Assembly (NCBI GenBank): GCA_964016885.1
Contig: OZ024745.1
Coordinates: 116,250,001 to 116,314,000, forward strand
DNA: 64,000 bases
Direction: 5' to 3'
Origin: Eledone cirrhosa
Lineage: Eukaryota
Below the pieces are notes generated by a model. That model did no database searches and was not told where the DNA came from. It saw only the letters and a list, made by a program, of their open reading frames with translations. Both the position numbers and the translations under genes were made by a program. Shown here in pieces: positions 11,601 to 45,825 of this stretch (positions are counted from its first letter, which is position 1; each line of letters opens with the position of its first letter).

Positions 11601-11952
11601 ACGCATATATTTTGATTATGTGAATATCTTTCATTTGTTAATAATTTGAATAATATTAAAATCTCCAGGAAAACTTCACTGTTAAGTGCTTTTAATCTAT
11701 TGTAAAATTGTATTCATTGAGTAATCAACGAACCATATTAATCTTTGGTTATATATATATATATAAATACATTATGGTAAACATGAACAAAGCCTACGTA
11801 TAGTGCCTTTTGCGTCGTTTTGGTTTTTTTTCTGTTCAAACCTGCATTGTCGTGGCTTTCCAACTTCAAATTCTCTCTCTCTCTCTCTCTCTCTCTCTAT
11901 ATATATATATATATAATATAAGATCAAAAGATGGTTAAAGGAGTTCAATATA

Positions 11953-12019
11953 TTTTATTATGCGCATTTCAAAAACAAACATCATCAAATAATAATATTT
12001 GTGTTTTCATCAGATAAAA
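11953..12019 (-). ncRNA. Type I hammerhead ribozyme in PLE 3' end (family A)
   Basis: Minus strand: TTTTAT-CTGATGA-AAACACAAATATTATT TG ATGATGTTTGTTTTT-GAAA-TGCGCA-TA-ATAAAA. Canonical core, stem I 6 bp, loop-less palindromic stem III (ATGCGCAT) typical of minimal PLE hammerheads. Confidence 0.85.
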
Positions 12020-13223
12020 CAGGAGAACATGATATGAAGGCTAAAAAAACACTTGTTGATAGTGCAGTTTTAAATCAACATATGAAAAGTGGTTTTAGAT
12101 TGATGTGTGATATTGGGAAAAATATTTTATTTAGAGAGGGGGGGGAGAGAAAAGGATGAAAAGGGAAGGAGATGAGAGGGAGAGATGGGTGATAGAGAGA
12201 AAGAGATAGTTTTTTATAACAGAGAGGAGATATATTTTATATAGAGGGGTTGAAAACCGTTGGAAGATACTGTATAAATTAAAAATTTTGAAAATTAACG
12301 AAGGGAGGATATGTGCGAGGAAAAAATATATTATATTTAGGGAGGGGTGGGGGTGGAAAGGATGAAAAAAAGGGGAGGAGATGAGAGTGAAGGTGGAAAG
12401 GGAGAGATGGGTGATAGAGAGAAGGAGATAGTTTTTATAACTGAGAAAAAGATATAATGTTTTAATATAGAGAGGTTGGGAACCGTTGGAAGATAATGTA
12501 TAAATTAAAGGAATTTGAAAATTAACGAAGGGAAATTATGTATGGAGATAGAGAGAAAAAAATAATAATAATTGTGGGTGAATATTCTAACGTCAAAAGG
12601 AGAAATGTAGGAATTTTAAAATTAGCAAAGAGAAAAAGTTTATGTGTAGGATTTGAGAAAAATAATGTGAAGTTAAAGTTTTTATATTGAATTCATATGT
12701 ATTAATAATGAGTTCGTTGATGGGGAGAAAAAAATAATAATAAATTAGGGATGAAATTGAGATTAAAAAGATTGATGATAGAGAGAAAAAATAATAATGA
12801 TTGCGGATGAATACTCAAAATGTCAAAAACAAATGTTATTGTTTTACGAGGAGATATAATGAGGGTGATGAGTAAACGGGTATTATAGAGTGTATAATGC
12901 CCTTTAAAGTAAGGTAGATGGGTATATTTTAAAGAATATATGAGTATATATTAAAAAAAATATATATAATAATAAATTAAGGATGAAATTGAGATTAAAA
13001 AGATTTATGATAGAGGGAAAAAGAATAATAATGATTGCGGATGAATATTCAAAATGTCAAAAACAAATGTTATTGTTTACGAGAAGATAGGATGCGGGAA
13101 AAGAGTAAACGAGTATTATAGAGTGTATAATGCCCTTTAAAGTAAGGTAGATGGGTATATTTTAAAGAGGTGTATGTATATGTGCCTTTGAGAAAAGATT
13201 CTAAATTGATAAAGAATTGAATA

Positions 13224-15560
13224 TTAACTGTATACTTTGTGAAAAGTTCTATGGAATTTATGCAGGCAGATGGAAAACAAATCCGAGCGTCTATTTATTA
13301 TGGATTCTAGGTTAGAGATAATGGTAAATTTTTCATTTAGGCAAAGATTACAGATTTTAGATAGAGAACTGTTCAAGTACGAGGATGCAGAAGAAATCTT
13401 TTTCCAAAAGATGTTATATTTAATGTTTTTGTCTTTTAAGGACCATATGAGTTCTGAGAGAGCAGTGTTAGTTCTTTTAAGTTTGTATTTGAAAGATGAA
13501 TGATGATTATAGAGACGAGCTTTAAAAGAGGTGGAAGTGGAGCCAAAATAGGTGAAGGAATTGGTGCTAGTTATAATTTTACATTCATAAATTAAGTTTT
13601 TATCGAGGCAGTGGTTGTTGAGAGGACATTTATTTTTAATGCGGCAGTTGCAATTAGAGAGATTATTAATGAGTGATCTAGTGTTATCTATAGAAGGAAT
13701 TGGATTGGAGAAGTTGTTTGCGATAGGAATAATAGGAATAATAGTTTCTTGATTTAGAGTTGGATTATGAACATTTAGCGAAGTTGTGTTTGACGTTGCA
13801 TTTGGGTTTACAGAAGTTAGCCTAGGGTTTACAATGACGTCAGGAGTACTATTATTGTTATTATGAGATTCAATATTGGAAGGAAGAGATTTAGTATTTA
13901 ATATTTTGTTGTTGTGTTTAGAAATGATGTTGGAAATATTGGAGGATGTAGAATACGAAAATTTGATGGTGTGTTTGTTAAATATTTTACTATAGATATG
14001 TGAGGGAGGGAAGCATTTATTTAAGGCCCTAAAAAATAATTTAGGAATATTGTTATTAATAGAGATGGAGAAAGGAGCATTATACCAGATTATGTTTTTG
14101 TATCTAGGTCTTTTATTAAGATTATTGGAATGGTTATGATTAAATATTCTATTGTAAGTTTTCCTAGAATTTGTTTCTTTATTATATTTGATTTTATCTG
14201 GATAGCCGGCTTTAGAAAGTGCGTTATTATAGTAATTGGCGTTAGCATCAAAGATGTTTTTATTAGAAGATATGTTAGATATTCTATTTCCAATATTATT
14301 AACTATAGCATTCTTGATATTGGTAGGATGGTTAGATTTAAAGTTAACATAATTAAGATTCTCATTGTTTTTATGGTAAGGGTAATATAGGCCAGTGTCA
14401 AGGTTAAGAGATACATCCAAGAAATTAGCTAGTTTGGTACTATTATCAAATTCAATTTTTAGGTTATGTTGGTTAAAGAGATTACGTATATTGTTCTTAA
14501 TAATATTAAGTTTAACTATATTGCAATTTAGGATAGTAAAGAGTCCATCGTCACGATAAATTCCACCGCGAAGTTGAGGAATTTTCCGACTCAAAGAGTT
14601 CAAAATGAAGATACCAATTAAATCAGTCAATTGGGATGAATCGGATGCTCCCATTGTGATGTCGAAGTTGTTAGAGGTATCGGCTCTGGTCCAATATTCG
14701 TTGTTGAACTCTAGGATGGTTTTACGTGCGGTGAGGATGATGTGAAGTTCATCTGTGGTGATGTCAGAATATTTAAGTGCGAAAGATAGAGCATTATTGA
14801 GAAGTGAAGGCGAAATGGAGGAATAGTAGCTGGCAATATCGAATTGAATAAATTTTAGTTTGTTTTTATTATCCAATTTGTTGAACCAGCCAATCACTTC
14901 AGAAGTACCAAACCATAAATTTAGGTTTAAAGAAGAGCAATTAGAACTAACCTGTGGGATAATCCTATCCAAGATGGCTTTACTAACAACCCCCAGATCA
15001 GATTTAGAGGGGGCGATTAATCTAACAGGTAGTTCAGTGTGAAAATTGTTTTTGTGATCCTTGAGATTTATCCTCGGAGTTCTTGGGAGGAATGGTTCGG
15101 TCTTTTTTTCAATGCCAAGTTTTGACATAATCTCATAGGCTTCAAGGTTTATGCATTCTAAATTTTCATGGTTGGTTTTACGATACTTTTTCCTAAGTTC
15201 CTTTAGGATAAGGTTGTTATAATTATCCTTGGAAATACCATATAGGTTATTGGTTTTGTCAGAGTGGACTAAAACATTTTTTGAGGAATTTAGGTTAGAG
15301 ATTGTGTTCTTGAGATTTACAAGGTGCTCTTGTCCTTTGTAAGGGTATCTCTTGAATTTAAGATTTTTTATAATTTTAGTTAATTCTTCCTCGAATTGTG
15401 CTAGATTTTTGTTGGAAGGAGGATTTCGTCTGGAATTAAAAAGATGATCGAGGAAGTTGTGTTCTTTGGTATGAAAGTTCCCTTTTAGGCGCTGGTCATA
15501 GAAATAGGCTGTCCATCTAAGTCTTCTTACGAAGGAGTCAGTTTTTTCCGATATCTGCAT
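13224..15560 (-). CDS. PLE reverse transcriptase-GIY-YIG endonuclease polyprotein (N-terminally truncated)
   Basis: 778-aa uninterrupted ORF. RT motifs PVRLI, FDIASYYSSI, MGASDSSQLTDLIG, IYRDDGL, NFLDVSL. C-terminal CNCR..CPL...CL, LIYEC..TYFGST..FKARLYNH, CNLCLNEK, N-R-SDL..CLH resemble Naiad-clade PLE endonucleases. The ATG lies in the inverted tail, so it is not the native start. Confidence 0.9.
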   Translation of the reverse strand: MQISEKTDSFVRRLRWTAYFYDQRLKGNFHTKEHNFLDHLFNSRRNPPSNKNLAQFEEELTKIIKNLKFKRYPYKGQEHLVNLKNTISNLNSSKNVLVHSDKTNNLYGISKDNYNNLILKELRKKYRKTNHENLECINLEAYEIMSKLGIEKKTEPFLPRTPRINLKDHKNNFHTELPVRLIAPSKSDLGVVSKAILDRIIPQVSSNCSSLNLNLWFGTSEVIGWFNKLDNKNKLKFIQFDIASYYSSISPSLLNNALSFALKYSDITTDELHIILTARKTILEFNNEYWTRADTSNNFDITMGASDSSQLTDLIGIFILNSLSRKIPQLRGGIYRDDGLFTILNCNIVKLNIIKNNIRNLFNQHNLKIEFDNSTKLANFLDVSLNLDTGLYYPYHKNNENLNYVNFKSNHPTNIKNAIVNNIGNRISNISSNKNIFDANANYYNNALSKAGYPDKIKYNKETNSRKTYNRIFNHNHSNNLNKRPRYKNIIWYNAPFSISINNNIPKLFFRALNKCFPPSHIYSKIFNKHTIKFSYSTSSNISNIISKHNNKILNTKSLPSNIESHNNNNSTPDVIVNPRLTSVNPNATSNTTSLNVHNPTLNQETIIPIIPIANNFSNPIPSIDNTRSLINNLSNCNCRIKNKCPLNNHCLDKNLIYECKIITSTNSFTYFGSTSTSFKARLYNHHSSFKYKLKRTNTALSELIWSLKDKNIKYNIFWKKISSASSYLNSSLSKICNLCLNEKFTIISNLESIINRRSDLFSICLHKFHRTFHKVYS

Positions 15561-45463: not shown

Positions 45464-45648
45464 AACGAGTAGGATCCCGACGGCTGAGCTCAAGCCGTTT
45501 CGACGGCTATTAGTCCAGAATTAGCCGTCGAAACGGCTTGAGCTCAGCCGTCGGGGTCCTACTCGTTCCTATTACCCACTCTACTACCCTAAGTATTGAG
45601 TATTTTGGTGCCTTATGGTCCACTTGGTTCCTTACCACATTTCCTTCG
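45464..45648. mobile_element. Family C mini-element (hammerhead stems II and III, core replaced by inversion)
   Basis: GACGGCTA..TAGCCGTC-GAAA-CGGCT TGAGCTC AGCCG-TC. Copies at 47135-47322, 50602-50782, 33482-33529 and tail-only 50805-50884. Confidence 0.75.
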
Positions 45649-45696
45649 TTATATATATATAAATATATATATATATATATATATATATATATATAT

Positions 45697-45825
45697 AGTA
45701 ATAATAATAAATTTGAAAATCCAAAGAGGGCTCGATAAGGATAAATATATATCAAATATATAAGATCCCGTTAAGGGTGAAAGCAACGATTCTTTGCTTA
45801 AACTTTAATCTGTTATTTTAATAAA
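45697..45825. mobile_element. Family B mini-element (inverted tail joined to hammerhead at AAGA)
   Basis: Left part matches 40921-40995, right part matches 41259-41323. (TA)n flanks. Confidence 0.75.

Follow-up and report, generated by a model that had tools for sequence, protein, structure and literature searches.

Inserts of Penelope-like elements (PLEs) of the Hydra clade in the genome of Eledone cirrhosa most commonly consist of two head-to-head arms that end at two different fixed sites of the element, each followed by a copy of the same motif, which is predicted to fold into an RNA hairpin. We describe these inserts in a stretch of 64,000 nt (assembly GCA_964016885.1, contig OZ024745.1, positions 116,250,001 to 116,314,000, forward strand; hereafter the window) and in loci sampled from the 3.0 Gb genome. 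The short arm-end site is called S, and the long arm-end site, which in families A to D lies 80-95 nt beyond S, is called L. The window holds ten two-armed inserts with one L and one S arm, both 3' ends facing outward, as a first-pass annotation of this DNA had already seen, and both sites merging into (TA)n. From sequence comparison, we consider it probable that both nicked strands of (TA)n prime once each, at two hairpin-specified sites on a single read-through RNA. More broadly, such programmed twin priming may be the normal insertion route of Hydra-clade PLEs, with a duplicated hairpin shared across phyla, one enzyme subunit on each copy priming one (TA)n strand, a tail that equals the hairpin spacing, and head-to-head repeats that are two joined complementary DNA (cDNA) ends. 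We offer this generalisation tentatively, and would stop a little short of calling it probable.

The origin of the head-to-head repeats of PLEs, and of their one-sided tail, is stated as open in the accessible parts of Craig et al. 2021 (PMC8557442), Frangieh et al. 2024 (PMC11167929) and Arkhipova et al. 2013 (PMC3846280); our comparisons with published systems refer throughout to such accessible text. A start-site mark of 20-30 nt makes this question directly testable by mutation, and represents a minimal cis signal for a telomerase-related reverse transcriptase (RT). Searches can also start from it: one pattern leads to 16147 genome sites, which include families missed by protein-based references. 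The duplicated motif and the strict rule of L+S pairing appear to be new; the elements, their overall architecture and two internal start sites are already in print. In the literature compared (mostly without subscription papers, older PLE reviews included), which takes in the accessible part of a 2026 retrozyme preprint (10.64898/2026.07.22.740005), we found no duplicated hairpin described for PLEs, no counts of L/S pairs and no application of twin priming to these elements.

Arm end-points and their pairing

The first-pass annotation had listed arm end-points for three families in the window and proposed a tally of them per family. All of the listed end-points are present at, or about 8 nt or less from, where it had placed them: family A at 11913, 42118 and 42159, family B at 4124, 41324, 45828, 51605 and 58946, and family D at 32476 and 33032. 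A fourth family, C, was absent from its list and has the same two-site layout. Most of the listed arms do belong to two-armed inserts, but those it gave as 4125 and 51607 are lone arms with no partner. The ends it gave as 42118 and 42161 are real and come from two separate insertions within one (TA)n run.

For the genome-wide tally, arms were scored against natural copies of each family in 210 loci from seven DNA searches, in 40 blocks of 10 kb and in the window. The ends are clustered rather than scattered, far beyond chance, with 495 of 526 scored 3' ends at S or L. They merge into a TA run in 236/245 cases at S and in 236/245 at L (472/490 in total), against 11% of background windows.

The two sites are used one of each per insert. 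Among 145 two-armed inserts found with queries that lack the tail, 139 are L+S, four are S+S (one of them near a locus edge) and two are L+L, where independent choice of site would give 50% L+S (p = 3e-34). Outside this count stand about 109 copies with one arm detected, 17 in which one end lies elsewhere and 18 located at locus edges (numbers before merges). Family A elements split at a duplication in the 3' untranslated region (UTR) were treated by hand, four being merged and one nested insertion reclassified. Loci obtained with tail-containing queries were kept apart, and gave 21 L+S inserts for family A and 25 for family C. In position-picked DNA (60 blocks, 600 kb), all 11 clear cases are L+S (p = 0.0005), and two further inserts have partner ends 6-17 nt short of S. 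The earlier suggestion that both (TA)n strands prime at two element-encoded sites fits these counts, as it fits the in-vitro work on Poseidon considered below.

Palindromes beside microsatellites are hard to assemble, and the junction at 15547 in the window was bridged in none of four runs from other samples, in which no empty allele was seen. We nonetheless see next to no chance that the structures are assembly artefacts at (TA)n. Raw reads of another sample contain TA loose ends at both L (L032:5417/5419) and S (5507/5510), with opposite-strand joints, and contigs of three other runs have the L end in all three and the S end also in two. Moreover, the arms of an insert are unequal and carry different substitutions, and each family has end sites of its own.

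A duplicated motif, predicted to form a hairpin, behind both sites

In families A, B, C and D the motif RCTCY-loop-GAGYRC, 20-30 nt long, lies within 10 nt downstream of S and again within 10 nt downstream of L. The L-site motif is mutated in the family C reference, and an intact L-site copy is found in locus L330. Shuffled units give 0.04-0.20 motif matches. Across the genome, one pattern yields 1205 matches against 8 for its reversed control and another 16147 against 157, these being numbers of repeat copies, not of independent origins. In 24 of the first 30 L-type matches, a Hydra-type open reading frame (ORF) starts 41-78 nt downstream.

The stem shows covariation at its base: among 142 distinct matches, related copies rather than independent events, the stem-base pair is A-T in 80, G-C in 45, G-T in 9 and A-C in 8. 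The spacing of the half-sites ranges from 8 to about 45 nt. A single-strand fold is favoured because the long loops are themselves internally paired (-8.3 kcal/mol in B, -13.2 in Z, a family introduced below). Read by eye, four of six published Hydra consensus sequences, from other phyla, carry the motif: Hydra-1_Ajap has it twice, at the 5' end, Hydra-2_Ajap and Hydra-2_Amil once near the 3' end, and Hydra-1_Crog as a compensatory variant.

The motif also predicted the end-points of further repeat families. Family Z was found only through it, from six of the first 30 L-type matches; 25 of its 30 copies stop just before the motif and five read through. Sixteen short ends of this family lie at +1..+11, with a second motif at +12, 146 nt upstream, one end lies 9 nt further back, and a hammerhead-like core is present. 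At 26 further motif loci a partner arm was found in nine, eight of which end -5..0 from the motif, six of those eight running into TA. Similarly, 38 motif matches in random blocks gave 11 partners, eight of them ending -10..+1 from the motif.

Other repeats were noticed alongside these families. A very abundant group that has the hairpin and a tail of 58-70 nt, without a link to an ORF (L312-L340, G000:C1), makes up most of the listed matches for the 16147-site pattern. Two further kinds of inverted repeat target TA: family E/G (L218:1242-1390, L210, L234, L239), with seemingly three fixed end-points, and family F (L233:1300-1520), with fixed end-points and a tail of about 58 nt. By eye, neither contains the RCTC..GAGY motif, and they may be other PLE clades with a signal of their own.

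Identity of the elements and read-through of L

Families A, B, C and D are Hydra-clade PLEs. The first-pass annotation had not named them as PLEs, whose architecture, including an inverted copy truncated at its 5' end and a tail often present on one side only, is in print (PMC8557442). The largest copy in the window is a family A S arm (11913..15547, - strand) made up of a 5'-truncated ORF, 3'UTR and pseudo-long terminal repeat (pLTR) up to S beside (TA)n. Its Hydra-type ORF (13224..15547, - strand) encodes an RT and a GIY-YIG-type endonuclease, and the open frame continues to 15572, into the inverted tail. An intact family A copy in locus L240, with an 800-aa ORF and six differences over 2324 nt, shows that the first 26 codons are missing from the window copy.

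The single ORF has the YRDD motif, and its predicted model matches RT and telomerase folds; the C-terminal endonuclease is identified solely from its motifs (IY..YFG, R, E, N). The Hydra clade is defined by RWK, DKT, a CxCx5C linker, CxxC and CxH flanks and the absence of CCHH (PMC8557442). DKT is found in A, B and D, RW is followed by T or R here and by K in homologs, the linker reads CNCRIKNKC, and CNLC..E..N..CLH places CxxC and CxH around the E and N residues. The ORF has no CCHH and no cysteine pair within the GIY-YIG core. The sequences of B, C and D extend upstream into Hydra-type ORFs. A Pfam search of the ORF assigned no family, and a sequence search for a solved PLE relative found none.

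The published Hydra-clade elements share with ours an ORF with C-terminal GIY-YIG-type domain, the RW/DKT, CxCx5C and CxxC/CxH motifs, a (TA)n target and, judged by pattern, what may be a hammerhead motif; they include one listed octopus family. Published tails are 30-40 nt, in contrast to 80-95 nt in A-D and 146 nt in Z. In the accessible text of PMC8557442 the tail is ascribed to endonuclease resolution, with neither pair counts nor a duplicated hairpin given.

Partial tandems that form pLTRs, with an inverted 5' copy and an optional tail, occur at loci L031, L032, L233, L235, L238 and L240/241, with units of 3.0-4.1 kb. All four families have tandem copies whose tail continues into 5'UTR and ORF, and since these copies read through L, L is an internal position rather than the RNA end. 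This removes the earlier suggestion that one of the two primers sits at the RNA end: both sites are internal.

A hammerhead-ribozyme-like motif, recognised by pattern only, is found in the pLTR (11953..12019, - strand), upstream of S by about 37 nt. The candidate ribozyme has a canonical core and a 5/5 stem I in A, a matching pattern in D, and apparently variant cores in B and C. An Rfam search gave no hammerhead match, only microRNA (miRNA) matches driven by microsatellites. The arms extend beyond the predicted cut site.

Several details of related copies were noted. The protein model P0002 contains, between RT and endonuclease, a low-confidence asparagine-rich insert (residues 575-656) that is absent from nine homologs and reminiscent of the asparagine-rich inserts in Adineta Penelope elements. 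Loci L240-L241 (G000:C3:26.52-26.53 Mb) form a tandem array of family A units with near-identical ORFs and an inverted terminal arm. In the window, positions 51862-52998 (+ strand) hold another Hydra-like fragment, made up of a C-terminal part of the RT and a long linker rich in asparagine; it is followed by a hammerhead-like core and, about 45 nt ahead of (TA)n, by a variant hairpin.

Arm geometry and kinship

Arm geometry was scored in 167 simple L+S inserts, with loci from tail queries included and 13 complex inserts left out. The arms are non-overlapping in 21, symmetric in 65, and reach further 5' on the L side in 34 and on the S side in 47. In the window, eight of the ten inserts have overlapping arms and are palindromic. 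The two non-overlapping ones are those that the first-pass annotation had described, rightly, as having a deletion between the arms (11914-15596 and 45697-45825 in its numbering). In the family A insert at 11913-15595 the L arm covers +44..+95 and the S arm runs up to +9; in the family B insert at 45698-45828 the L arm covers +19..+95 and the S arm -57..+9, with the bases in between deleted in both.

The same annotation had matched this geometry to L1 twin priming, in which priming would start at the RNA 3' end on one strand and, on the other, at an internal AU-rich site by microhomology alone. Such a route would account for the outward 3' ends, for the 21/167 inserts with non-overlapping arms and a deletion, and for two AU-rich sites that blend into (TA)n. 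We regard it as very improbable for these elements. In all four families read-through of L leads into the ORF, and single-pass twin priming of the L1 type covers just 21/167 because the arms of the remaining inserts overlap. Furthermore, the internal site is fixed rather than scattered, and although the units are AT-rich throughout, 495/526 ends fall at two sites that each have the motif behind them. Both sites are AU-rich, but AU-richness alone is insufficient to specify them, since a conserved duplicated motif follows both.

The arms of an insert resemble each other more than they resemble other copies in 42/42 cases in family A, 47/55 in C and 19/20 in D. Rare variants of an L arm recur in its own S arm in 108 of 210 cases, against 10.5 expected, which points to one template for both arms of an insert. 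An alternative route would be priming at L alone, with the cDNA folding back and copying itself and the second strand ending at S by pairing with (TA)n. Fold-back of this kind predicts L+S inserts, shared variants and symmetric centres, and it also requires every S arm to lie within its L arm. The S arm is not contained in the L arm in 68/167 inserts (S further or non-overlapping), among them the 3.5-kb S arm of the window with its 50-nt L arm. These 68 largely refute the idea as a sole route; the existence of lone S arms and the unexplained motif after S count against it too, and we hold it to be extremely improbable.

Two RNAs, or the two pLTRs of one tandem RNA, might instead serve one target strand each, within an asymmetric complex that imposes one start at S and one at L, after the 'dual priming' with two mRNAs proposed for L1 (Meyer et al. 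2010, PMC2837659). This would produce the 146/167 overlapping arms without double copying of one RNA and would explain why S+S and L+L inserts occasionally occur. Nothing in it naturally leads to L+S in 139/145, however, and the arms share rare variants although several subfamilies are present together, in the window even as neighbours. We think this explanation quite unlikely.

Unlikely too, in our judgement, is a route in which a self-primed fold-back hairpin forms first, possibly on antisense RNA, and is resolved by staggered endonuclease cuts at S and L, the motif being a cleavage signal in DNA. Both halves have precedents, self-priming having been proposed for head-to-head PLE repeats (PMC3846280) and endonuclease resolution for the tail (PMC8557442), and in D. 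virilis DNA recognition by the endonuclease depends on the tail (work cited in PMC11167929). Such a route likewise predicts L+S pairing, shared variants and the 65/167 symmetric centres. A fixed stagger, on the other hand, would leave one arm class always further 5', and both are seen (68 versus 34); the variable half-site spacing (8 to about 45 nt) and the paired loops are awkward for recognition in duplex DNA. The family A insert given as 11914-15596 would require a 3.5-kb fold-back on a 2-nt overlap, and PAc, the Anolis element discussed below, uses nicked DNA in vitro to prime synthesis on sense RNA (PMC11167929).

The inner (5') junctions form family-specific clusters (A -161, B -65, C -47..-64, D about -128), often with short templated-looking fillers. 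Hammerhead cleavage was tried as their source and rejected, as the predicted cut sites are downstream of the clusters (in A, about -37 versus -161). Exact-microhomology scoring classed 127/155 inner junctions as 'insertion', the extensions being shortened by reference variants beside the junctions. As a separate observation, the L arms of all seven non-overlapping family A inserts end at +44..+66, immediately 3' of hairpin 1 (+14..+41), as though they had stalled there; the corresponding stops in B, C and D are mixed.

A proposed model of priming at two hairpins

The model that we favour as probable, in which each nicked (TA)n strand primes once on one read-through RNA, builds on features that are observed: the identity of the elements, the two places where arms end, the pairing of one L with one S, the presence and position of the duplicated motif, the read-through of L and the kinship of the arms. 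A single transcript spanning pLTR, tail and the next 5'UTR would carry both hairpins. Two enzyme molecules, perhaps a dimer, would each sit on one hairpin and nick both (TA)n strands, giving one start of reverse transcription per site. Each molecule would prime from a 3' TA end on the AU-rich patch immediately 5' of its hairpin, (TA)n being a target with an identical 3' end on both strands. Where the cDNA primed at L halted within the tail, non-overlapping arms would result; where it continued over RNA already copied from S, the arms would overlap, which would require strand displacement or sequential copying. End joining would then unite the two free cDNA ends head-to-head, and the 'tail' would be the spacing of the two hairpin-set start sites. 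Retroelement RTs are capable of strand displacement. PLEs, to our knowledge, lack RNase H.

Several points weigh against this model. Overlapping arms in 146/167 inserts require one RNA to be copied twice. Own-arm similarity is not significant in family B (13/20, p = 0.52), and later gene conversion between arms could give the same shared variants. The six L+L and S+S inserts break the pairing rule, about 109 neutral copies with only one arm detected stand outside it, and the family-specific clusters of inner junctions are left unexplained. As for the motif, its stem-base counts come from related copies, the short hairpins are weak (-3.7 to -5.7 kcal/mol), no clear motif was seen by eye in the consensus sequences of Hydra-1_Amil or Hydra-1_Obim, and family Z is not tied to any ORF. 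The motif could also act in DNA as an endonuclease signal. Finally, by analogy with PAc, whose start is AC-rich and non-homologous to its target (PMC11167929), base pairing to (TA)n may be unnecessary.

The closest experimental parallel is Poseidon PAc of Anolis, which nicks and extends both strands of an AT-rich target from two internal starts that bound the tail. It requires RNA downstream of these starts, uses unprocessed RNA and is predicted to form a dimer (PMC11167929). The elements described here would share the two internal RT starts bounding the tail, and their arms likewise pass the predicted hammerhead cut site. The PAc start, by contrast, lies in an AC-rich stem-loop without target homology, whereas both sites here are AU-rich and merge into (TA)n. 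That paper, in its accessible main text, is silent on inverted inserts, on how the sites pair within one insertion and on any motif repeated after each of them.

The present case resembles twin priming and two-mRNA dual priming of L1 (PMC2837659) in having head-to-head arms, some internal deletions and, probably, priming from both strands. Unlike them, it lacks a poly(A) end and has two fixed, internal sites, the arms mostly overlap and the two-armed form is the commonest; target-site duplications are unreadable in (TA)n. Penelope elements of Adineta vaga have inverted pLTRs with the tail optionally on one, palindromes at inner junctions and asparagine-rich inserts in the ORF, as here, but self-priming on an antisense template was inferred for them (PMC3846280). 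The arm geometry in Eledone is a better fit to two target-primed starts than to antisense self-priming.

Individual inserts and other repeats in the window

The L arm facing the large family A copy is an inverted stretch of the last ~50 nt of the tail (15546..15596, + strand), with a 2-nt overlap with the ORF at the junction. Two further family A inserts lie in one (TA)n run: a palindromic L+S insert at 41805..42118, with hairpin 1 starting at 41886 on the - strand, and an S+L insert of a second subfamily at 42159..42545, with hairpin 1 starting at 42464 on the + strand. Family B contributes a palindromic L+S insert (40923..41324), the L+S insert with non-overlapping arms (45698..45828) and an S+L insert (58946..59154, hairpin 1 at 59071-59119, +), together with two lone S arms on the - strand, at 4124..4194, flanked on both sides by (TA)n, and at 51605..51646. 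The family D inserts, both L+S, lie at 32150..32476 (hairpin 1 from 32231, -) and, for a second subfamily, at 32731..33032 (hairpin 1 from 32808, -). Family C is represented by S+L inserts at 45459..45649 (hairpin 1 at 45578-45604, +) and 47131..47322 (hairpin 1 at 47252-47278, +). Two diverged copies of a C subfamily, at 50602-50771 and 50816-50884, have the identical layout. A family Z fragment (42643..42671, +) stops at its own L site, a few nt before the hairpin position of the read-through copies.

The window also contains repeats of other kinds. A dispersed repeat of ~190 bp, resembling a short interspersed nuclear element, is present in more than ten copies, often in tandem (15829-16231, 19255-19660, 21674-22068, 54800-55160, 57525-57880, 61586-61973 and others); it has also inserted into PLE arms (L208, L244), and ARAGORN found no tRNA in it. 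Minisatellites with units of 89, 47 and 40 bp occupy 6284-6958, 7663-8432 and 9174-10830, the last two being related. A short symmetric palindromic repeat, similar to a miniature inverted-repeat transposable element, is flanked by (TA)n without having unequal arms, and is found at 25847-25933, 33605-33682 and 46339-46424.

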